Source of the DNA: an uncultured Candidatus Saccharibacteria bacterium
GTDB taxonomy: Bacteria > Patescibacteriota > Minisyncoccia > Phycocordibacterales > JABMNX01
Length of the DNA: 64,000 nt
Reading direction: 5' to 3'
Assembly: GCA_964575755.1 (NCBI GenBank)
Contig: CAZNRH010000002.1
Location: forward strand, 70,351 to 134,350
Shown here: in pieces, positions 6,085-46,560 of the stretch
Numbering within the stretch: the stretch's first letter is position 1
How the letters are laid out: every line of letters begins with the position of its first letter
Notes under the pieces: generated by a model
What the model saw: the letters and a program-made list of their open reading frames with translations, nothing else
What the model was told of the DNA's origin: nothing
The model's database searches: none
Program-made: the position numbers and the translations under genes

Positions 6085-6267
6085 ATGACACCAGTGGATA
6101 ATGACAGTAAGATTAAAGTATTTTTACCTGGATTGAATAGTCCGTCACAAATTGCCGGATCGCTGCAAAGAATGGAAGTTGAAGAAAAGAAACATGGTGG
6201 GCGTGTACCAAATGCTCTCTTTCCAAGATTTGTAGCGTCTTTAAAAAGACTCTTACGAAGGAATTGA
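6085..6267 (+). CDS. small hypothetical protein
   Basis: 60-aa ORF with AGGAAAGG Shine-Dalgarno 10 nt upstream. Its own terminator lies at 6321-6352. Confidence 0.35.
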   Translation: MTPVDNDSKIKVFLPGLNSPSQIAGSLQRMEVEEKKHGGRVPNALFPRFVASLKRLLRRN

Positions 6268-6320
6268 TGAAAGTCTACATAAAAGATTTACCGGTCAATC
6301 CACACCACCTCGCAAAACTC

Positions 6321-6352
6321 CCCCGTCACAGTAGCTACGTGACGGGTTTTTT
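6321..6352 (+). terminator. rho-independent terminator
   Basis: Stem cccgtcac/gtgacggg followed by tttttt. Confidence 0.6.
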
Positions 6353-7187
6353 ATTTCAACTTAAAATATACCTTATTACCAAAACGTAGATCTATGTATT
6401 CTATGTCTTCTGTATTCTTTTCTCTAAATGTTTCTGAATCGAGAACGACAGTAAGGTTATCGAGCACCTCAGACGATCCTTGTTTTCTTGTGAAGATAAT
6501 CTTACTCTCACCTTCTAGATAAAGCTCCATATTTGAGACACCTACTGTGTGTAATTCGATAGGTATAACCTCTAACTTTTTAAGTGAATCAATAAGAGTG
6601 TTCATTTTATTAAATTCGTCGTTTATTTTTAAATAATACTTACCTACATAATCTGGACCTATTAAATCTCCATAAAAACGCATGAAGACATTACCCGTAA
6701 AGTTGGGTGCTTTCGAGAATACAAACCCTTCCGTATTAATGAAATAACAATCCTCTGTTAATTCACTACTTTTATCAGTACACCAAAGAGCATACGGCTT
6801 CTGCTCCTCTATTTCCATGGATAAAGTTTGAAGGTCAGTACGCACGATATCAACTGACTCAATTTGCTTAAATGTGGTTAAGATAGAAGACTCTATCTCT
6901 TCTTCTGGAAAAATTAAACTGTTTGTACGCGGAAATAATAAAAAATATTTTCCACCCTCAAGAACCTCTTCTGTAACATCTTTTATTCTTGAGTCTGAAA
7001 TAACACTACTTCCATTTATAACAATATTGTTTATCTGCAAGTATGGACGATACGATACCCACGAACCTAAACCTATTAAAAGTATAATGACGACCACGCT
7101 ACCAACAATTTTCCATAAAAAAGATCTACGCCTACGTTTAGCAAGTCTTTCTGGTCGTGCTACTTTACATCTCCTAAACCACTTCAT
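6351..7187 (-). CDS. ftsQ: cell division protein FtsQ/DivIB-like
   Basis: Basic cytoplasmic N-terminus, one TM helix, POTRA-like region (VDIVRTDLQTLSMEIEEQKPYALW). Confidence 0.7.
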   Translation of the reverse strand: MKWFRRCKVARPERLAKRRRRSFLWKIVGSVVVIILLIGLGSWVSYRPYLQINNIVINGSSVISDSRIKDVTEEVLEGGKYFLLFPRTNSLIFPEEEIESSILTTFKQIESVDIVRTDLQTLSMEIEEQKPYALWCTDKSSELTEDCYFINTEGFVFSKAPNFTGNVFMRFYGDLIGPDYVGKYYLKINDEFNKMNTLIDSLKKLEVIPIELHTVGVSNMELYLEGESKIIFTRKQGSSEVLDNLTVVLDSETFREKNTEDIEYIDLRFGNKVYFKLK

Positions 7188-7299
7188 CCCGTACGAAATA
7201 GGACACGGACTAATGTTGCCATTGTCCTAAAGTTAAATCCTCTGTTAATTATCGACTTATTTTCCATATATTATGTTTGTATCCATGATTTCGTACGGG
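7188..7299 (-). repeat. start-codon-abutting inverted-repeat element (copy a, upstream of ftsQ) with internal 27-aa micro-ORF
   Basis: Arms cccgtacgaaataggacacgga and tccatgatttcgtacggg are complementary. The element ends exactly at the ftsQ ATG. Internal ORF MENKSIINRGFNFRTMATLVRVLFRTG spans 7184-7267 on the minus strand. Its TGA overlaps the ftsQ ATG as ATGA. Confidence 0.75.
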
Positions 7300-7306
7300 A
7301 TTTATA

Positions 7307-8572
7307 TTATTTTGATATTATGTCCTTCCCTAAATATTTTTGCAACACTTCTGGAACTTTAATAGATCCATCTTCCTGTTGGAAATTTTCTACAAGCGAT
7401 ACTAGGATTCTTGGTGTTGGTATCGCGGTGCAGTTAAGAGAGTGGACATATTTAGCTTTTCCATTCTTGTCTCTATATTTAATATTAAACCGTCGTGTTT
7501 GGAAATCATGGAAATACGACGCTGAACTTATCTCGCGATATTTTTCTTCAAGTGGCACCCAAAGCTCAATGTCATACTTCTTAACCTGACCTTGTCCTAA
7601 ATCTCCACCACAATTAAGTACTGTGTGATACGGAATATTAAGTGATTCAATAAACTCTTCTGTATTTCTATTTATCCATTCATGTAGTCGCACAGACTCT
7701 TCATGATTAGCTTCGCATAAAACAACCTGTTCAAGCTTAAAAAACTCATGCACTCTAATGAGTCCTTTTGTATCCTTTCCATGACTTCCTGCTTCCCTCC
7801 TATAACACGGGGAGAACGACAAGAATTTTACTGGAAAAATCTTCTCATCTAGAATCTCATCGGCATAATATCCCATTGTTGATATCTCTGACGTACCAGC
7901 AAGATAATCATCGTCTTGCGTCTTATATATATCATCAACTTCGTTTGGTAAATGTCCTGTGCCGTATAAATTACTCTTACGAACTATCGAGGGAACAATC
8001 ATTGGGGTAAACTCTTTTTTAAGGAAAAAGTCCATTGCGTAATTCCAAATAGCCCATGACAAAAGTGCGCCATCATTTTTAAGAAAGTACCCACGGAACC
8101 CATGCACCTTTGTACCACGCTCAAAATCAACCATGTCCAGCGCTGTCATTATATCTACATGATTTTTTGGCTCAAACGAAAACTGAGTTTTCTCTCCCCA
8201 CACCTTTATTTCTTTATTATCTTCATCATCTTTTCCCTCTGGCACTGACATGTCTGGAACATTTGGAACTTGTAGCATAAGCGTATGCCACTTTTCCATA
8301 ACACCCTTCAACTCTTCTTCTTCTTTTTGTAATACTGCCTTAAGTTCTTTCATTTCAGAAATAGCCTGATAGCGAACATTCTGGTCTTCTGACTTTGCTA
8401 TCTCTTCATTTGCTTTATTTTGTCTTGCGCGTTTTTCTTCCACTGATTTCAATATCTCTCGCCTTTTATCATCAAGAGTAATAAGACTATCAATATCAAA
8501 ATCCATATGCTTTTTTCGAGCACCTTCCTTAACAAGATCTTTGTTTTCTCTAATGAAGTTAATATCTAACAT
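7307..8572 (-). CDS. serS: seryl-tRNA synthetase
   Basis: N-terminal coiled-coil arm and class II core. Typical SerRS sequence and length of 421 aa. Confidence 0.9.
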   Translation of the reverse strand: MLDINFIRENKDLVKEGARKKHMDFDIDSLITLDDKRREILKSVEEKRARQNKANEEIAKSEDQNVRYQAISEMKELKAVLQKEEEELKGVMEKWHTLMLQVPNVPDMSVPEGKDDEDNKEIKVWGEKTQFSFEPKNHVDIMTALDMVDFERGTKVHGFRGYFLKNDGALLSWAIWNYAMDFFLKKEFTPMIVPSIVRKSNLYGTGHLPNEVDDIYKTQDDDYLAGTSEISTMGYYADEILDEKIFPVKFLSFSPCYRREAGSHGKDTKGLIRVHEFFKLEQVVLCEANHEESVRLHEWINRNTEEFIESLNIPYHTVLNCGGDLGQGQVKKYDIELWVPLEEKYREISSASYFHDFQTRRFNIKYRDKNGKAKYVHSLNCTAIPTPRILVSLVENFQQEDGSIKVPEVLQKYLGKDIISK

Positions 8573-18773: not shown

Positions 18774-19017
18774 AATGCATTTAATGATATATGTAAAATG
18801 TGGTGGTTACAAGGTGGATGAAGTGGTTAATATTTTCAAATCCTGCCTGGCGTGACAAACAAAATCACCCCATGCTTTCACATTGGGTGATTTTGTATTA
18901 TTTATTTGGCGCAGGTTTCTAAGCTCACTGCGTTCACTAAGAACCTCCTGCCCTAGCTCGCGGTAACAATTTTTAAGGAAAAAGAAAAATCGTTACATCG
19001 CTCCGCTTCACAGAAAC

Positions 19018-19048
19018 GTAAAAAACGAGGAACCAACCTCGTTTTTTT
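19018..19048 (-). terminator. terminator downstream of tRNA-Tyr
   Basis: Stem aaaaaacgagg/cctcgtttttt. Confidence 0.6.
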
Positions 19049-19057
19049 ACATTTCTG

Positions 19058-19141
19058 TGCGCCGGGCAGGATTTGAACCTGCGTAGGGCTATGCCCGTCA
19101 GATTTACAGTCTGATGCGATTGACCACTCCGCCACCGACGC
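19058..19141 (-). tRNA. tRNA-Tyr (anticodon GUA)
   Basis: Acceptor GCGTCGG/CCGGCGC. Anticodon stem TCAGA/TCTGA with loop CTGTAAA. Long variable arm. Discriminator A. Confidence 0.8.
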
Positions 19142-26643: not shown

Positions 26644-26973
26644 ATGTCCGATAGAACTTTAAAGGTATCATTACTTGTTAAAGAAGCTGCTGCCGATTTT
26701 CTTAACAGGGAATCTAATCACACGTCACTTATTACCGTGACTAACGCAACAATTTCAAAAGACTTCAGTAATGCTACTGTATTTTTTACAGTTTTTCCTG
26801 ATGATCAACAAGAACAAGTTCTTCATTTCACACGCAGGAAAAGAGCTGACTTTAAATCATATTTAAAGTCTCGCCTTCATTTAAGGAGAATACCCTTCGT
26901 TGATTTCAAAATAGACGAAGGAGAAAAACATCGCCAAAGAATCGATGAGATTTCACAGGAAGTAGAAGAATAA
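26644..26973 (+). CDS. rbfA: ribosome-binding factor A
   Basis: KH-like RbfA fold pattern and conserved position directly after infB. Confidence 0.7.
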   Translation: MSDRTLKVSLLVKEAAADFLNRESNHTSLITVTNATISKDFSNATVFFTVFPDDQQEQVLHFTRRKRADFKSYLKSRLHLRRIPFVDFKIDEGEKHRQRIDEISQEVEE

Positions 26974-27001
26974 TGTAGAAAGTTTAGTATAATAGAATAC
27001 T

Positions 27002-27074
27002 GACCACGTGGCGAAGTAGTTAACGCAGCGGTTTGCAAAACCGCCATACGCGGGTGCAGATCCCGCCGTGGTCT
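27002..27074 (+). tRNA. tRNA-Cys (anticodon GCA)
   Basis: Acceptor GACCACG/CGTGGTC. Anticodon stem GCGGT/ACCGC with loop TTGCAAA. Discriminator U. The T-loop TGCAGAT is atypical. Confidence 0.7.
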
Positions 27075-27125
27075 CAAGTTAAAATATCTTGTCTTCAAAC
27101 GACAAAAATATTTTTACGTAAATAT

Positions 27126-27209
27126 GCCGGGATGGTGGAATTGGTATACACGCAACACTTAAAATGTTGTGGGCGTAAGCCCATGCGGGTTCAACTCCCG
27201 CTCCCGGCA
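27126..27209 (+). tRNA. tRNA-Leu (anticodon UAA)
   Basis: Acceptor GCCGGGA/TCCCGGC. Anticodon stem CAACA/TGTTG with loop CTTAAAA. Long variable arm. Discriminator A. Confidence 0.8.
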
Positions 27210-27222
27210 CAAAGAGAAATGA

Positions 27223-27256
27223 ACCTCGTCTGAGAAGACGAGGTGATTTTCTTTTG
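27223..27256 (+). terminator. terminator after tRNA-Leu(UAA)
   Basis: Stem acctcgtct/agacgaggt followed by gattttctttt. Confidence 0.6.
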
Positions 27257-27258
27257 TA

Positions 27259-27388
27259 GCCGGGAGCGGGAGTTGAAAGACGGAAGCGGTATACAAGATG
27301 CGTAGTGAAACGGAGCAGGCTTGTCGCTGAGTCGGGGTCGAGAGTACTTAGTGCATAGCACTTAGTAACTCGTGACCAACTCCCGCTT
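27259..27388 (+). repeat. tRNA-linked AGACGGAAGC element (unit A)
   Basis: Starts with the reverse complement of the tRNA-Leu(UAA) 3' end (gccgggagcgggagttgaa). Then aagacggaagc. Core gctgagtcggggtcgaga. Ends ttagtaactcgtgacc plus a copy of the tRNA T-arm 3' strand (caactcccgct). Confidence 0.6.
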
Positions 27389-27457
27389 CTAATAGAAAAA
27401 CAAATTTGTTTTGTAACCTTTTTCTGTTACTATAACTCTTGTTATATTACACAACAT

Positions 27458-27530
27458 CCGCCTATAGCTCAGTTGGTAGAGCAACCGCCTCTTAAGCGGT
27501 GGGTCGCAGGTTCGAGTCCTGCTGGGCGGA
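27458..27530 (+). tRNA. tRNA-Lys (anticodon CUU)
   Basis: Acceptor CCGCCTA/TGGGCGG. D-arm GCTC-AGTTGGTA-GAGC. Anticodon loop CTCTTAA. T-arm GCAGG-TTCGAGT-CCTGC. Discriminator A. Confidence 0.85.
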
Positions 27531-27534
27531 CAAT

Positions 27535-27580
27535 GAAATAAAATACTCCCATTTTTGTGGGAGTATTTTATTTCATTTCT
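27535..27580 (+). terminator. long hairpin terminator after tRNA-Lys
   Basis: 17-bp stem gaaataaaatactccca/tgggagtattttatttc followed by atttcttc. Confidence 0.55.
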
Positions 27581-27588
27581 TCTACACT

Positions 27589-27720
27589 GGACTCGAAAGA
27601 CGGAAGCCCGCGTGCCAAAGCACGAGAGAGGGCTGAGTCGGGGTCGAGAACACTTAATATTTCAGGAATACCTGGACTAAAATATTTAGTGATTCGTGAC
27701 CGAGTCCTGCTGGGCGGACA
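27589..27720 (+). repeat. tRNA-linked AGACGGAAGC element (unit B)
   Basis: Starts ggactcgaa, the reverse complement of the tRNA-Lys T-loop/stem. Then agacggaagc. Core gctgagtcggggtcgaga. Ends tttagtgattcgtgacc plus an exact 20-nt copy of the tRNA-Lys 3' end (cgagtcctgctgggcggaca). Confidence 0.65.
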
Positions 27721-27796
27721 CGCGCAAAACAAAATACGCTATACCTATGGCGTATTTTGCTTTAACAAGCAAACTGCTTTGCTTGTGGAGCTTGTC

Positions 27797-27973
27797 CGAG
27801 ACGGAGCAATGTTTTGTTGCCTGTTTTTCCTAAGACAACAAAACCGCGAGCCCAGACCAAAAGCACTTAGTAGATTTCAAGCGAAGCGAAAAAATCTATT
27901 TAGTGACTTGTGGTGACTAAGTGATAAAATAAGGTTTGCGAATTTAGAAACCTGCGCCGAGTCCTTTAAATTA
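27797..27973 (+). repeat. GAGACGGAGC-motif element X1
   Basis: gagacggagcaatgttttgttgcc...aacaaaaccgcgag hairpin, then ...tttagtgacttgtggtgac...gcgaatttagaaacctg. Ends gcgccgagtcct, resembling the tRNA-Lys T-arm. Homologous to 46433-46532. Confidence 0.55.
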
Positions 27974-28021
27974 ACAACTTGTGATGACGAGGTACACTGC
28001 TTTTTGTATGTACTCGTGTCT

Positions 28022-28060
28022 GAGACGGAGTGATATTTTGGTACGATGCATCGCTCGGAA
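28022..28060 (+). repeat. GAGACGGAG-motif element X2 (short or partial)
   Basis: gagacggagtgatattttggtacgatgcatcgctc. Confidence 0.4.
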
Positions 28061-28125
28061 TAAATCAAACAAACACCACTTGAAACAAAATCAATACTAA
28101 ACTATACTAGTGGACACATATTAAT

Positions 28126-28189
28126 GTGCGAGTGGTGAAATTGGTAGGACAAACAGTGTTTAAACACTGTTTGTCCCCGTCGAGTGAGG
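28126..28189 (+). pseudogene. tRNA-like pseudogene (tRNA-Leu-derived 5' half, no T-arm or acceptor 3' strand)
   Basis: GTGCGAGTGGTGAAATTGGTAGGAC closely matches the 5' half of the adjacent tRNA-Leu (GCGCGAGTGGCGAAATTGGTAGAC). Followed by an aberrant anticodon hairpin with a 6-nt loop and no T-arm. Confidence 0.5.
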
Positions 28190-28218
28190 AAATGTTCGTT
28201 ATAAAAAATTGATAGTGT

Positions 28219-28300
28219 GCGCGAGTGGCGAAATTGGTAGACGCGCTAGTCTTAGGAACTAGTGGGGCAACCCATGGAGGTTCAAGTCCTCTCTCGCGCA
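28219..28300 (+). tRNA. tRNA-Leu (anticodon UAG)
   Basis: Acceptor GCGCGAG/CTCGCGC. Anticodon stem CTAGT/ACTAG with loop CTTAGGA. Long variable arm. Discriminator A. Confidence 0.85.
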
Positions 28301-28345
28301 CAGTGTCTATTTTTTATAGAACATAGTAAAAGGTATCGCAAGATG

Positions 28346-28373
28346 TGGAGGTTCAAGTCCTCTCTCGCGCACA
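28346..28373 (+). repeat. exact 28-nt direct copy of the tRNA-Leu(UAG) 3' end
   Basis: tggaggttcaagtcctctctcgcgcaca is identical to 28275-28302, with a 43-nt spacer. Confidence 0.8.
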
Positions 28374-28379
28374 TAAAAC

Positions 28380-28412
28380 AAAAAACACCTAGCTTACACT
28401 AGGTGTTTTTTG
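28380..28412 (+). terminator. rho-independent terminator
   Basis: Stem cacctag/ctaggtg followed by ttttttg. Confidence 0.6.
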
Positions 28413-28422
28413 TTTCACGAAC

Positions 28423-28812
28423 TTAAAAAGAAACATTATCATTATAATGAGAATAAAAGTTACCACCTCCACTTCCTCTCCTCTCTATCACACCTGGTAT
28501 AATCACATTTTGATCCTGTACACTAAAAGTAGATTGGAGCATTCTAATCAATCCCCAAATTGAAACCATTACAAAAAGAGCAATAATTCCATATATCATA
28601 ATGTCTCGCCCTTCGGATTTTTTATCCTCACTTCCTTGATTAAATATGAACTGAGCCAACCCCCAGAAGAAATAAAGCACTGCAAGAGCTAGTACCAACG
28701 GAATTGCCGTATTTATTAAGCTAGAAAAAGTACCCATCACAGCTTCCAAACTTTGAGCACTAGCCACTAGTGGCATAATAAGCAATCCTAACGCCACAAA
28801 AAATGTTTTCAT
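28423..28812 (-). CDS. TrbC/VirB2-like pilin-type small membrane protein
   Basis: Signal peptide MKTFFVALGLLIMPLVASA followed by two TM helices (AIPLVLALAVLYFFWGLAQ and IMIYGIIALFVMVSIWGLIRML). Confidence 0.6.
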   Translation of the reverse strand: MKTFFVALGLLIMPLVASAQSLEAVMGTFSSLINTAIPLVLALAVLYFFWGLAQFIFNQGSEDKKSEGRDIMIYGIIALFVMVSIWGLIRMLQSTFSVQDQNVIIPGVIERRGSGGGNFYSHYNDNVSF

Positions 28813-29095: not shown

Positions 29096-29431
29096 TTACC
29101 TCTTTACTTCCTTAGGAATAATAACAGTCTGATCTGTTACACTAAAAGTAGATTGGAGCATTCTAATCAATCCCCAAATTGAAACCATTACAAAAAGAGC
29201 AATAATTCCATATATCATAATGTCTCGCCCTTCGGATTTTTTATCCTCACTTCCTTGATTAAATATGAACTGAGCCAACCCCCAGAAGAAATAAAGCACT
29301 GCAAGAGCTAGTACCAACGGAATTGCCGTATTTATTAAGCTAGAAAAAGTACCCATCACAGCTTCCAAACTTTGAGCACTAGCCACTAGTGGCATAATAA
29401 GCAATCCTAACGCTACAAAAAATGTTTTCAT
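29096..29431 (-). CDS. TrbC/VirB2-like pilin, near-identical paralog of 28423-28812
   Basis: Start set at MKTFFVALG. The first ~100 codons are ~99 percent identical at DNA level to the paralog. The C-terminus differs. Confidence 0.6.
   Translation of the reverse strand: MKTFFVALGLLIMPLVASAQSLEAVMGTFSSLINTAIPLVLALAVLYFFWGLAQFIFNQGSEDKKSEGRDIMIYGIIALFVMVSIWGLIRMLQSTFSVTDQTVIIPKEVKR
29131..29431. repeat. ~300-bp segmental duplication (partner 28510-28812)
   Basis: Near-identical DNA over about 300 bp. Only isolated single-base differences were seen. It covers the 5' parts of two pilin genes. Confidence 0.8.
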
Positions 29432-29567
29432 ATAAAATTTATTTAATATTTCTTTTAATAGAAACCTTCTACTAATAATCAATTATAATTATAGAGTAAT
29501 AATAGCCGATAATTGCACTAAAGAGCAATCCAGCAGTGTGGATATAGTAAACCACACTAAAATTCAG

Positions 29568-29930
29568 CTAAATTCTTATAGTCTCACCTGGAGTATACTG
29601 CTGTTGCGTGGAACCACCAGAACCTAAAAAAGTATTACTTAAAAGACGTAAAATACCCCAAATAGATACCATAACAAAAAGTGCAATAATACCGTAAATC
29701 ATAAGCTTTCTGCCATCTTCTATCTTAGAAGTATCTCCAGCTGAAAATATATATTGAGAAACTCCCCAAAAGAACCCAAGAACTGCTAACGCAATTATTA
29801 TAGGAACCGCTAAATTAATAAAACCTACCAACAACCCAACAAGCTCAGGAAAAGTCTGCGGAGCAGCGAAAGTAACCATTGGAATAAATAGAAGTGCTGA
29901 TAATGTTAATATTGTAAGTCTTTTTAACAT
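29568..29930 (-). CDS. TrbC/VirB2-like pilin-type small membrane protein
   Basis: Signal peptide MLKRLTILTLSALLFIPMVTFA. TM helices AVPIIIALAVLGFFWG and LMIYGIIALFVMVSIWGILRLL. Confidence 0.6.
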   Translation of the reverse strand: MLKRLTILTLSALLFIPMVTFAAPQTFPELVGLLVGFINLAVPIIIALAVLGFFWGVSQYIFSAGDTSKIEDGRKLMIYGIIALFVMVSIWGILRLLSNTFLGSGGSTQQQYTPGETIRI

Positions 29931-29933
29931 AAT

Positions 29934-30350
29934 TTATCCAGTTAAAAGTCCGATAGTGTTTCTTACAATAATTGCCAATGTCCAAGAACCAAGGAATAAG
30001 GCTACCCCAATAATTGTATAGTAAAAAGTCTTCTTAGCTTCTTCAATCTTTGTTACATTACCCTGTGCTGTAACAAAAAGGAATCCAGAATACACAATAG
30101 ACAACACCGCTATTGGAAGTCCTATATTAATAACTGCCTTTAGAAGCAACTCAACAAATTTTTCAAAGCTATAGATACCGCTATTTTCTAATGGGTTTTC
30201 TAAACCAGCTGCAAGTGCATATGGTACTGTAACCATAAAAAAGAAAATAAATGTTGTTAATGTTTTTTGAATCCCATACGAAATAGGACACGGACTTATA
30301 GTATTTTTATCCACAAGTATAGATTTTATATTAATTGTCAACTTTTTCAT
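29934..30350 (-). CDS. TrbC/VirB2-like small membrane protein (start uncertain; N-terminus reads through a repeat element)
   Basis: Two TM helices (INIGLPIAVLSIVYSGFLF and IIGVALFLGSWTLAIIV). The ATG at 30350 lies in the loop of element copy b. An alternative ATG lies at 30236. Confidence 0.5.
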   Translation of the reverse strand: MKKLTINIKSILVDKNTISPCPISYGIQKTLTTFIFFFMVTVPYALAAGLENPLENSGIYSFEKFVELLLKAVINIGLPIAVLSIVYSGFLFVTAQGNVTKIEEAKKTFYYTIIGVALFLGSWTLAIIVRNTIGLLTG

Positions 30351-45148: not shown

Positions 45149-46342
45149 ATGAAAAAAATACAACCAGACGTTGAAGCATTTGCACGAATACGAGTAGTTG
45201 GAGTAGGAGGTTCAGGAAACAACGCTGTTAATCACATGATTAACACGAAAGTAACCGGTGTCGATTTTGTATCAATAAACACTGACGCACAAGCACTACA
45301 TGGCTCAACCGCAAAGAAGAAGATTCACATCGGTAAAAATCTTACACGAGGTCTTGGAACAGGCATGAACCCAGAAATGGGAAAGCAGGCAGCAGAAGAA
45401 ACGAAAGAAGAAATCCAAGAAGCTGTTAAAGGTTCTGACATGGTTTTCGTAACCTATGGAGCTGGTGGAGGAACTGGTACAGGAGCAGCTCCTGTGGTAG
45501 CTAAGATAGCGCGAGATTCAGGAGCACTGACCGTAGCTGTTGTTACTAAGCCTTTTTCTTTTGAAGGACAACAGAGAATGCGCTTAGCAGAACTTGGACT
45601 TGAAGAAATCAAAAAAGAAGTAGATGCGCTTATAGTTATCCCTAACGACCGACTACTTGCTGTTGTACAGCGTGAGACCTCTGTCAAAAATGCATTTGCA
45701 ATGTGTGACGACATACTAAAGCAAGCTGTTGAAGGTATTTCAGACCTTATTACCATGCCAGGAATAATTAATGTCGACTTCGCAGACGTTCGCGCTGTTA
45801 TGGACAATGCTGGTTCGGCTCTTATGGGTATCGGAACAGCTACAGGTGAGAAACGAACTGAAGATGCTGCTAAAGCAGCTATCAGCTCACCTCTTCTTGA
45901 AGTTTCAATAGCAGGAGCTAAAGGAGTATTGTTCTCAGTTGCAGGTGGTGATGACCTCTCAATGCTTGAAATTCAAGACGCAGCTAAGGTAATTACAGAA
46001 TCAATTGATCCAAACGCAAAGGTTATCTTTGGAACAGTACAAGATGACAAACTTAAGAAGAATGAAGTAAAGGTGACCGTTATCGCAACAGGATTCCCTG
46101 AAAATTCAATGCCGTCAGGAAAAAGCTCTTCCCTATTCCAGCTTCCAAAGAAGGATGCAGAAAAAACAGAAGAAAAAAAAGAAAGTAAAATTTATAATTC
46201 AGTAGCAAAGTTAACAAACGACCCTAAAAAAACAGACAAGAAAGATGATGCAAAGAAAGACGGAGATGTAAAAAAAGATGATACAGATGATGACGACTGG
46301 GGCGCAGTTCCAGCATTTTTGCGACGGTCGAAGTTAAAGTAA
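45149..46342 (+). CDS. ftsZ: cell division GTPase FtsZ
   Basis: [10 protein letters not shown] tubulin signature. Acidic linker. C-terminal AVPAFLRR peptide. Confidence 0.95.
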
Positions 46343-46390
46343 ACTTCGATTCGCAAAAATGCGAACTGCGCCCCAGTGGGGCACAAAAAT

Positions 46391-46428
46391 GTAAAAAAAT
46401 GAAGCCAATGCTTCATTTTTTTACATTT
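46391..46428 (+). terminator. rho-independent terminator of ftsZ
   Basis: Stem gtaaaaaaatgaagc/cttcatttttttac followed by atttttg. Confidence 0.65.
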
Positions 46429-46432
46429 TTGT

Positions 46433-46532
46433 GAGACGGAGCGATGTTTTGTTTTCCATTTTTACTAGAAAACAAAACCGCGAGTCCGGAGAGGAAGTTC
46501 TTAACAAGCGTAGCGAGTTTAGAAACTTGACC
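46433..46532 (+). repeat. GAGACGGAGC-motif element X3 (homolog of X1), bracketed by two terminators
   Basis: gagacggagcgatgttttgttttcc...aaaacaaaaccgcgagtcc...caagcgtagcgagtttagaaacttgacc shares blocks with 27797-27973. Confidence 0.55.
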
Positions 46533-46560
46533 TCAGTTCCAGCTTTCCTACATTGTAAGC

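Follow-up and report, generated by a model that had tools for sequence, protein, structure and literature searches.

A 64,000-nucleotide (nt) stretch of DNA from an uncultured Candidatus Saccharibacteria bacterium (GenBank assembly GCA_964575755.1, contig CAZNRH010000002.1, forward-strand positions 70,351 to 134,350; the whole stretch is referred to below as the window) carries, behind its genes for tRNA-Leu(UAA) and tRNA-Lys(CUU), two homologous units that belong to an apparently uncatalogued family of small structured elements in Patescibacteria. Each unit begins with the reverse complement of sequence from the 3' third of the tRNA gene before it (the arm T'), continues with a conserved core that folds into a three-way junction, and ends with a direct copy of the 3' end of the same tRNA (the arm T_right; coordinates in Table 1). 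We are confident that the units are insertion cassettes with a selected single-strand fold. The interpretation towards which we lean, tentatively, is that they are non-autonomous, target-mimicking or guide-bearing integrative micro-elements of which the folded top strand is the working form, and they are filed here as a new variant among site-specific mobile elements.

A shared fold in two neighbouring units

Both units had been described in an earlier note made from the nucleotide sequence alone, and all the features that it listed are present where it had placed them. Two blocks, GAAAGACGGAAGC and GCTGAGTCGGGGTCGAGA (13 and 18 nt), are identical between the units, the 18-mer matching the window twice where 0.02 matches would be expected. 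The units also have one predicted three-way junction in common (z scores of -5.4 and -4.0), in which T' and T_right form the outer helix P1, the strands GAC[G-GA]AGC and GCU[GA]GUC enclose a hairpin to form P2 and, beyond a 'GG' linker, GGUCGA and GUGAC enclose a second hairpin as P3; in unit 1 the core opens with an A and runs from P2 (GAC[G-GA]AGC..GCU[GA]GUC) through GG into P3 (GGUCGA..GUGAC). A terminator hairpin separates each unit from its tRNA gene, and a search for a promoter between this terminator and T' of the window units found none. T_right of unit 2 is read as the displaced old 3' end of tRNA-Lys and is followed by a terminator-like hairpin at 27730-27759.

A family of elements in Patescibacteria

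A scan of species-representative genomes with the pattern GACGGAA-N(8-38)-CTGAGTCGGGGTCGA returned 50 loci (designated here by L numbers, together with those found subsequently). About 44 of them are genuine, having the core followed by GTGAC, and nearly all of these lie in Patescibacteria (Saccharibacteria, Paceibacterota and Wolfebacteria), where some metagenome-assembled genomes (MAGs) carry 7-9 copies; in the six matches from other phyla the rest of the element is missing and they look like chance. A looser pattern applied to metagenomes gave at least 120 further loci. The covariance model R1, built from 29 copies, matches 69 times in the genome loci; on the metagenome side, 88 matches came from the first 80 of the at least 120 loci. 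Pattern scan and model together yielded about 140 further copies from Patescibacteria genomes and metagenomes. The genes targeted comprise 17 tRNA identities and transfer-messenger RNA (tmRNA). The cores vary within one overall layout, types A-D being related to one another and types E-H being different cores in the same position.

The fold is borne out by covariation across these homologues. In two alignments, the first made with MAFFT and a structure specified by the analyst and the second fitted to the model, 93% and 92% of helix cells are paired, against about 35% in slid registers, and double changes affect 121 and 293 cells, as compared with 37 and 93 after shuffling. Most of the signal lies in P1 and P3, in keeping with the earlier claim that the ends can pair with each other, and in diverged copies P2a covaries as well (GAC/GUC, GGC/GCC, ACC/GGU).

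The elements appear to be missing from Rfam. Over positions 26900-28400 of the window, cmscan at E <= 10 against Rfam 15, whose families include hammerhead, twister, pistol, hatchet, hairpin, HDV, group I/II introns, tmRNA, tRNA-like and STAXI, returned tRNAs and noise only, and 12 element-rich loci gave only tRNA and tmRNA at the gathering threshold; neither ARAGORN nor Rfam's models for tRNA and tmRNA detect the elements themselves. Viral contigs, scanned twice, produced no true matches, nor did blastn against phage and plasmid records produce any. There is no open reading frame (ORF) in the window units or in most of the others, which are 130-190 nt long. Literature searches found no description of such elements, the closest paper dealing with group I introns at position 35/36 of Patescibacteria tRNA genes, which are unrelated (PMC13011429).

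Two MAGs, CAYZZT01 (labelled Saccharibacteria) and ELA362 (labelled 'bacterium'), contain the core in the form of an interspersed repeat of 125-280 nt (L001, L008, L014, L017, L027, L030, L031, L035, L036, L040, L041, L045 and L047; for example L047 1240-1520). One or two additional modules of 'GACGGA..GAG' type are attached to it there, and it holds an internal T-loop-like hairpin (TTCAATCTGAT-GGGT-ATCAGATTGAA) and has a closing stem that covaries among copies more than 85-95% identical and is not derived from tRNA.

The arms copy the local tRNA

Linkage to tRNA genes is specific for one strand and one side. A same-strand tRNA or tmRNA gene lies within 200 nt upstream of 74 of the 140 type-A elements and an opposite-strand one within that distance of none, and the eight elements with a same-strand gene within 200 nt downstream are all in tRNA clusters; the median distance from tRNA end to core is 73 nt. 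The sequence behind the invariant GTGAC copies the locus's own tRNA from C56 to the 3' end, and the 5' arm of each tRNA-linked element is the reverse complement of that same tRNA. The earlier note had argued that, if homologues elsewhere bore no relationship to their neighbouring tRNAs, the mimicry in the window would be a local accident; homologous elements match their own neighbouring tRNA in dozens of other genomes. T_right is 20-24 nt long in 22 of 52 non-redundant elements and is cut off in about a third of copies, in which T' is intact. The lengths of T' cluster at 17-19 nt, where the arm is contiguous as in window unit 1, and at 11-13 nt, where only its second segment (T'2, see below) is present. 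When its fit to the real tRNA is compared with its fit to T_right, T' matches the tRNA better in 20 elements, worse in one and equally well in 31 (n=52), which indicates that it is not kept merely to close P1. A sub-type (L020, L022, L023, L043, L077, L113, L123 and the tRNA-Tyr unit of the window) has arms that complement the extreme tRNA 3' end together with the trailer, and the duplication starts there.

The fullest copies (L083, L068, L121, L040 and L113) have the order tRNA, terminator hairpin, T'1, P0, T'2, 'A', core, GTGAC and T_right. In these the terminator hairpin starts right after the discriminator, and T'1 (10-12 nt) is the exact complement of the acceptor 3' strand plus discriminator, so that T'1 and terminator form perfect palindromes of 22-29 base pairs (bp). 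P0 is a conserved hairpin with the consensus GnAAGCAAA-CTGC-TTTGCTTnC, and T'2 (12 nt) complements the T-loop and the 3' strand of the T-stem. T' is therefore a bipartite antisense to tRNA positions 54-76, split at 65/66, of which T'1 is detectable (at least 8 nt) in 15 of 53 elements. In complete copies, pairing of T' with T_right rebuilds the acceptor and T stems of the tRNA as a minihelix in which P0 replaces the D and anticodon arms and the core replaces the T-loop. In the minimum-free-energy structure of the one full-length unit that was folded (L121 unit 2; z = -6.1), T'1 pairs with the acceptor 3' strand of T_right and P0 forms, T'2 pairing differently from this scheme. At L040 4894-5230 the functional tRNA-Glu gene has no encoded CCA and the displaced copy behind the element keeps GGTCACCA, and the insertion there therefore swapped a CCA-encoding tail for a CCA-less one.

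Several simpler accounts of the arms were rejected. A miniature inverted-repeat transposable element needs constant terminal inverted repeats and a short direct target-site duplication, and here the arms vary by copy and equal the local tRNA sequence. A core inserted in the T-loop of a duplicated T-arm was ruled out because the 5' arm complements the 3' half of the T-arm and not the T-stem 5' strand plus TT. Nor is T' a primer-binding site complementary to tRNA plus CCA, the bases 5' of it not complementing CCA. We give scarcely any credence to a host device acting in cis at the tRNA 3' end, in which T' would lengthen the terminator hairpin into the tRNA and read-through transcripts would be trapped or cut, for example by RNase III. 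The element does lie directly behind the tRNA on the same strand, and the perfect 22-29 bp hairpins do take in the acceptor 3' strand, but such a device would need neither the conserved core of about 100 nt nor the T_right copy. Moreover, only some tRNAs in each genome carry elements, the set differing between related genomes, and copies exist away from tRNAs altogether.

The folded strand and its chemistry

The fold belongs to one strand. Folding is more favourable for the tRNA-sense strand than for its complement in 47 of 51 elements, by a mean of 7.4 kcal/mol, and whole-element folds of these 51 contain 107 G.U pairs on the top strand against 47 on the bottom, which places the selected structure on the top strand; the G.U versus A.C count in model-aligned helices (30 vs 22) is weakly informative, whole-element strand folding being the clearer measure. 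One G.U pair, in P3a, is invariant. The motif GCGNAGC occurs on the top strand of 8 of 52 elements and on the bottom strand of none. The apical loops comprise GAA, GTA and GCA triloops, GAAG, AGCA and AACA; GNRA and UUCG loops were looked for in the elements and none was found. The working form would be the folded tRNA-sense single strand, for which DNA stands at about even chances, RNA a little lower, and anything else is improbable. Pointing to DNA are the lack of a promoter in the window, the long perfect palindromes, which look templated rather than selected, and the loop types, including the GNA triloops.

If the strand acts as RNA, the elements might be structured non-coding RNA genes residing at tRNA 3' ends, with the layout T'(1)-P0-T'(2)-core-T_right, and their transcripts could be cut by RNase P and RNase Z, receive CCA and serve as tRNA mimic or decoy or as antisense to the tRNA 3' third. 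This alternative, unlikely in our view and still deserving of serious attention, would account for arms that reproduce the acceptor and T-stem strands (with T'1 paired to the acceptor strand of T_right in the L121 unit 2 fold), for a G.U-rich fold on the tRNA-sense strand, and for the conserved junction purines and tandem G.A loops. A terminator behind T_right at most loci, and an AT-rich, promoter-like stretch before T' in the MAG ELA268, would also suit it. It sits poorly with the lack of a promoter between upstream terminator and T' in the window, with the lack of GNRA or UUCG loops, and with the loss of part of T_right in about a third of copies, which means that the minihelix is often incomplete. 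The distribution of the elements, sporadic across tRNA identities and variable in copy number, is that of selfish DNA, and direct-repeat-flanked cassettes and tandem arrays are not explained by an RNA gene alone. Two proposals of the earlier note, a tRNA-templated small RNA with CCA addition and an element resembling short interspersed elements (SINE-like), find no support here, no reverse transcriptase lying nearby, no promoter being found in the window between the upstream terminator and the element, and the loop types not looking RNA-like.

The core does not correspond to a known ribozyme or motif. As the earlier note had held, the elements are neither group I introns nor hammerheads, no Rfam family matching at E <= 10. 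For a group I intron the core is too short (60-110 nt, where at least about 200 nt are needed) and lies downstream of an intact tRNA and its terminator, with no Rfam intron match. As a hammerhead, its junction strands would be A(AA), GG and none, CUGANGA does not occur, and the candidate 'GAAA-GAC..GUC-G' puts an A opposite a G where an A15.1-U16.1 pair is needed. A hairpin-ribozyme core was checked by hand and no ribozyme core fits, and the internal loop of P2, tandem G.A plus a 1-nt bulge, is not a standard k-turn. That the core is instead a new small ribozyme, guided by T' and cleaving or ligating RNA at the base of P1 (GUGAC|C56), we hold to be highly improbable. Its substrate would be the transcript that contains it or the T-loop of the tRNA (in tail exchange or read-through processing, for instance), and such a ribozyme is suggested by the three-way junction with its invariant nucleotides, by multiple copies and tandem arrays such as many self-cleaving ribozymes show, and by the fact that T' would set the tRNA 55/56 bond exactly at the in-cis GUGAC|C56 junction. 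Against it, no known ribozyme family or core motif matches (the CUGANGA, GAAA and UH geometry of the hammerhead being absent), and the decay of T_right speaks against a spare-tail function.

Evidence for insertion and movement

The insertion of a cassette is best seen in two loci, L028 and L048, that are near-identical around tRNA-Ser. L028 holds an extra 161 nt, consisting of tRNA positions 53-76 with a new discriminator, trailer and terminator, followed by T' and a 65-nt core of another type, and this insert lies directly 5' of the old tail, whose old trailer and terminator remain. The cassette supplies a replacement tail and is flanked by a 22-nt direct repeat, the left copy of which has the new discriminator, trailer and terminator; the direct repeat and the restored tRNA are features shared with islands that integrate into tRNA genes. 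By analogy with L028, the terminator between tRNA-Leu(UAA) and unit 1 is itself assigned to the inserted cassette. In general, direct copies of the tRNA tail, 7-24 nt in length, border the units.

Units also accumulate in tandem, with four behind tmRNA in L044 and two or three in L043, L040 and L002. In L077 (4040-4705) there are five units of 136 nt [P0-GTG-T'-core-CAGTTAG], arranged head to tail and 100% identical, behind an unannotated tRNA 3' end, and they represent either a very recent amplification or an assembly artefact, and some of the other tandem arrays could be assembly artefacts too; ELA268 has a 191-nt unit in three copies with 100% identity. At L121 the P3 helix is nearly identical in three sister cores, one behind tRNA-Ile, one behind tRNA-Ser and one behind a 3' end that reads in the sequence as tmRNA-like, and the arms of each core match the gene before it. 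Elements on different tRNAs combine P2 and P3 types in shuffled fashion, from which it follows that movement or recombination of cores between tRNA types outpaces their divergence. Collectively, the 161-nt direct-repeat-flanked polymorphism, the tandem arrays and the sister copies with matching arms behind different tRNAs agree with the integrative micro-element that the earlier note had offered as one possibility. Its statement that the pattern is no simple att-site scar stands in part: the direct copy is the old tRNA 3' end, displaced just as it is when classical elements integrate, while the inverted copy and the folded core go beyond such scars.

Neighbouring genes and larger islands

Clustering of the ORFs in about 10 kb around first 44 and then 164 loci brought out no recurrent protein partner. 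The recurrent neighbours reflect housekeeping synteny (MiaA, PilM, a LepA-like GTPase, a SpoU-type methylase, RecQ, ComF and SmpB), and among the recurrent protein clusters near the 164 loci there were no tyrosine recombinase families (IntI, Xer) and no Y1 HUH TnpA or TnpB. With no recombinase, transposase or reverse transcriptase gene recurring nearby, any catalytic partner is hypothetical. A family of proteins of about 220 amino acids (aa), with an N-terminal helix-turn-helix and a C-terminal part of no known kind, is encoded near tRNA clusters at 9 of 164 loci (L083 8298-9023, L112 5239-5904, L077 5028-5696 and six others), and large serine recombinase genes are present at 5 of 164; both were considered as partner and rejected as too rare.

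Among the serine recombinase genes (L009 119-1801 and 6167-7891; L025 1872-3404; L081 11894-13537; L110 86-1645), those in L009 and L110 belong to large islands. Resolvase, Recombinase and Zn-ribbon domains were confirmed for the L009 ORF at 6167-7858, of which the other recombinases are BLASTP homologues. In L110, tRNA-Glu is followed by a large serine recombinase gene and an island of about 9.6 kb that ends with T'-core-T_right; in L009, tRNA-Ser is followed by such a gene, about 6 kb of further DNA and an element. The C-termini of the recombinases read into a tRNA 3' end, in L009 and L025 into the copy supplied as T_right, and displaced tails therefore appear to serve other islands as landing sites. 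The recombinase islands concerned, those of ELA268, seem to have been inserted where earlier units had supplied a tail. At L024 (21-5428) a STAND-type NTPase of 1243 aa is encoded upstream of an element and a Shedu (SduA_C) gene downstream; the T_right of this element resembles the tail of tRNA-Glu, and the element seems to stand at the boundary of a defence island.

Such islands suggest a different origin, in which the units are passive remnants and T'-core is the conserved right end (attP arm) of integrase-driven islands whose body has been deleted. The islands in L110 and L009 that end with T'-core-T_right, and the STAND NTPase upstream of the L024 element, speak for this account. Direct repeats of the tRNA tail are moreover the classical att signature, and a plain core-less 27-nt duplication follows tRNA-Leu(UAG) in the window. 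We nevertheless consider a remnant origin improbable. A double-stranded protein-binding arm would not give helix covariation with variable hairpin sequences, and the tRNA-core distance is tightly peaked at about 65-90 nt, unlike the spread that random deletions would leave. The gene of the recombinase islands lies immediately next to the tRNA with no cassette terminator in between, the islands of ELA268 appear inserted into pre-existing units, and recombinase genes occur at 5 of 164 loci only. The inverted copy T' is also left unexplained.

Comparison with known systems

Parts of the architecture recur in several known systems. In common with integron attC sites and the attP(+) site of CTXphi, the elements have two inverted arms around a structured spacer of about 60-140 nt, a strand-specific fold imitating a duplex partner site, ORF-less or small units in tandem arrays and, after integration, an inverted arm, spacer and hybrid site beside the junction. 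They differ in folding on the top (gene-sense) strand, whereas attC folds on the bottom strand with extrahelical bases, in arms that copy the targeted tRNA and not RYYYAAC/GTTRRRY or dif, in having tRNA and tmRNA genes as targets, and in a spacer that is a sequence-conserved three-way junction across Patescibacteria classes. Identification as integron attC sites, or as clusters of attC sites lacking an integrase (CALIN), was rejected since GTTCGAA deviates from GTTRRRY, 3'-end-type arms (CACA.., CGCCAC..) are unrelated to it and 47 of 51 elements favour the top strand for folding.

The IS200/IS605 family, palindrome-associated transposable elements (PATEs) and repetitive extragenic palindromes with their mosaic elements (REP/BIME) are also strand-specific single-strand hairpin elements with non-autonomous copies mobilised in trans, and in IS200/IS605 guide nucleotides beside a protein-bound hairpin read the target and the cleavage site, with which T'1-P0-T'2 and its upstream target may be compared. 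The guides there are 4 nt long as against 10-23 nt here, and the ends of the present elements are not similar hairpins. Assignment to IS200/IS605 or PATEs was rejected, since those insert 3' of a 4-5 nt target without duplication or a target copy, unlike units flanked by direct copies of 7-24 nt. The integrase islands and cis-mobilisable elements (CIMEs) of tRNA and tmRNA genes share insertion in the T-loop or 3' end, the replacement tail, the displaced tail as direct repeat and tandem accretion; the units differ from them in being 130-190 nt long without an integrase, in carrying an inverted target copy, and in having as conserved end a covarying single-strand fold and not double-stranded protein-binding arm sites.

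A segment complementary to the insertion site, pairing visibly with the flank after insertion, is also found in the bridge RNA of IS110 and in the internal guide and exon-binding sequences (IGS/EBS) of group I/II introns. Here one contiguous target strand is read by T'1 and T'2, whereas two loops of the bridge RNA read opposite strands, and a bridge RNA was rejected because there is neither an adjacent recombinase nor a pair of loops reading target and donor. An intron core could by no means fit into so small an element, which is moreover located downstream of the tRNA and not inside it. Finally, as in other tRNA-like structures (the tRNA-like domain of tmRNA, those of viruses, minihelices), the paired ends rebuild acceptor and T stems with an authentic 3' strand and discriminator, but pairing closes the T-loop, in place of which there is a large junction, and the mimic is incomplete in many copies.

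A model for integration

In the model to which we incline, cassettes would integrate into the region between T-loop and 3' end of tRNA and tmRNA genes. In tRNA-sense orientation, 5' to 3', the resulting arrangement would comprise a replacement tRNA 3' part, the cassette's own terminator, T', the three-way-junction core and the displaced old tail T_right, and insertion would be harmless to the host because the cassette supplies a new tRNA tail and terminator. T', contiguous over 17-19 nt or split at 65/66 by P0, would pair with tRNA-tail sequence to close P1, and this pairing would also display the target-site sequence as a duplex, so that the element would carry its own guide or att-mimic. An enzyme encoded elsewhere may recognise the core together with P0 and perform a top-strand exchange at the base of P1, between GTGAC and C56, with tyrosine recombinases on folded attC or CTXphi attP, or IS200/IS605 HUH transposases with guide bases beside a hairpin, as possible analogues. 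Speculatively, when an element has moved, T' might be rewritten by hairpin-templated (quasipalindrome) correction of the imperfect palindrome. What the data show are the family with its fold and strand, the link to tRNA genes, the matching arms and the insertions between direct repeats, with their arrays; a single-stranded intermediate, guiding by T' and an enzyme supplied in trans are inferred. A stronger version, in which a mobile element free of protein genes picks its integration site by base pairing through a 12-23 nt guide (T', split around P0) that lies beside a folded scaffold and directs strand exchange into the matching tail, the guide being rewritten from each new target, is conceivable and in our judgement doubtful.

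A number of points weigh against the model. The P1 helix of the interspersed Saccharibacteria copies is not tRNA-derived, and the difference between L028 and L048 could be a gain or equally a repeat-mediated loss. No recombinase, transposase or reverse transcriptase recurs near the 164 loci. The circular or single-stranded intermediate rests on inference, circles of 130-190 nt would be very small, and the model leaves unexplained how T' comes to be rewritten on a move to another tRNA. In addition, the frequent G.U pairs favour RNA, as do the conserved unpaired purines and tandem G.A of the core, which look like an RNA tertiary or protein-binding motif.

If the model is correct, Patescibacteria harbour abundant miniature mobile cassettes that hit nearly every kind of tRNA gene without damage, mark their target by a built-in complementary segment, and leave behind decoy tRNA tails on which larger islands land (seen with the serine-recombinase islands L009 and L025 of ELA268). 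They would explain much of the unannotated sequence around tRNA clusters in reduced genomes, add a structured element (RNA or single-stranded DNA) that Rfam lacks and provide markers of strain-level variation for uncultured lineages. They would also be a natural example of target choice by base pairing, which could yield a recombinase or transposase partner and possibly a programmable integration tool; were the guide-directed version true, it would be a naturally programmable integration system in ultra-small bacteria.

Further units and related pieces in the window

Besides units 1 and 2 the window has further, degraded units and fragments, and its features are collected in Table 1.

Table 1. 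Elements of the family, their arms and the associated tRNA genes and terminators in the window
Feature	Position	Strand	Basis and remarks
Orphan 18-nt inverted copy of the tRNA-Tyr 3' end, CGCCAGGCAGGATTTGAA	18835-18852	-	No core behind it
Variant-B unit behind tRNA-Tyr	18908-19016	-	tRNA-Tyr at 19057-19141, minus strand
tRNA-Cys	27002-27075	+	First of four plus-strand tRNA genes clustered in the window
tRNA-Leu(UAA)	27126-27210	+	ARAGORN, Rfam tRNA model; its 3' third (positions 54-76) is the target of unit 1 (T_left)
Intrinsic terminator hairpin between tRNA-Leu(UAA) and unit 1	27223-27244	+	Terminator scan
T' of unit 1, GCCGGGAGCGGGAGTTGAA	27259-27277	+	Exact 19-nt reverse complement of tRNA-Leu positions 54-72
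Unit 1 core, type A, 99 nt	27278-27376	+	Fold; R1 99.5 bits, E = 7e-32
T_right of unit 1, CAACTCCCGCT	27377-27387	+	11-nt direct copy of tRNA-Leu from C56, stopping abruptly after 11 nt
tRNA-Lys(CUU)	27458-27531	+	ARAGORN, Rfam tRNA model; target of unit 2
Terminator hairpin, 20 bp, between tRNA-Lys and unit 2	27533-27576	+	Terminator scan
T' of unit 2, GGACTCGAA	27589-27597	+	9-nt reverse complement of tRNA-Lys positions 54-62
Unit 2 core, type A, 103 nt	27598-27700	+	Fold; R1 114.3 bits, E = 6e-37
T_right of unit 2	27701-27720	+	Exact 20-nt copy of tRNA-Lys positions 56-76
Third unit, degraded	27764-27917	+	R1 partial match 27857-27913, E = 1e-9; P0 match
Further fragments	27920-28068	+	Read from sequence; direct match at +427
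tRNA-Leu(UAG)	28219-28301	+	Last of the four clustered tRNA genes
Variant-B core	46419-46545	+	R1 18.1 bits, E = 6e-4; directly after the ftsZ terminator

The degraded third unit has a P0 hairpin at 27764-27786, with the exact P0 consensus AAGCAAACTGCTTTGCTT inside it at 27767-27784, and a variant core of the form GAGACGGAGC..CGCGAGCCC..P3..GTGGTGAC. The fragments behind it consist of a P3-like end followed by CGAGTCCT, a copy of the tRNA-Lys T-loop at 27958-27965, and then of a hairpin followed by GAGACGGAGTG (about 27990-28068).

On the minus strand (18835-19141) there come, behind the tRNA-Tyr gene and in this order, a near-perfect palindrome that takes in the last 4 nt of the gene, a variant core, a second terminator and the orphan inverted copy. 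T' of this unit (TTTCTGTG) complements the last 4 nt of the tRNA together with the trailer, and the terminator hairpin therefore reaches into the tRNA. The core behind ftsZ is a diverged relative (GAGACGGAGC..CGCGAGUCCGG..) without tRNA-derived arms, which means that the core family is not strictly tRNA-bound; a further R1 match at 46243-46375 is doubtful.

The gene for tRNA-Leu(UAG) has an exact 27-nt copy of its own 3' end at 28347-28373, 45 nt downstream, accompanied by neither inverted copy nor core, and resembling an ordinary duplication of the att type or a minimal insert. Adjoining the tRNA cluster are genes for two small membrane proteins (28423-28812 and 29096-29482, minus strand) that have an identical stretch of 113 aa (residues 1-113 and 18-130, respectively). 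Further paralogues lie at 29568-30350; the proteins are pilin-like by appearance, and the genes beside the cluster look like a recent tandem duplication.

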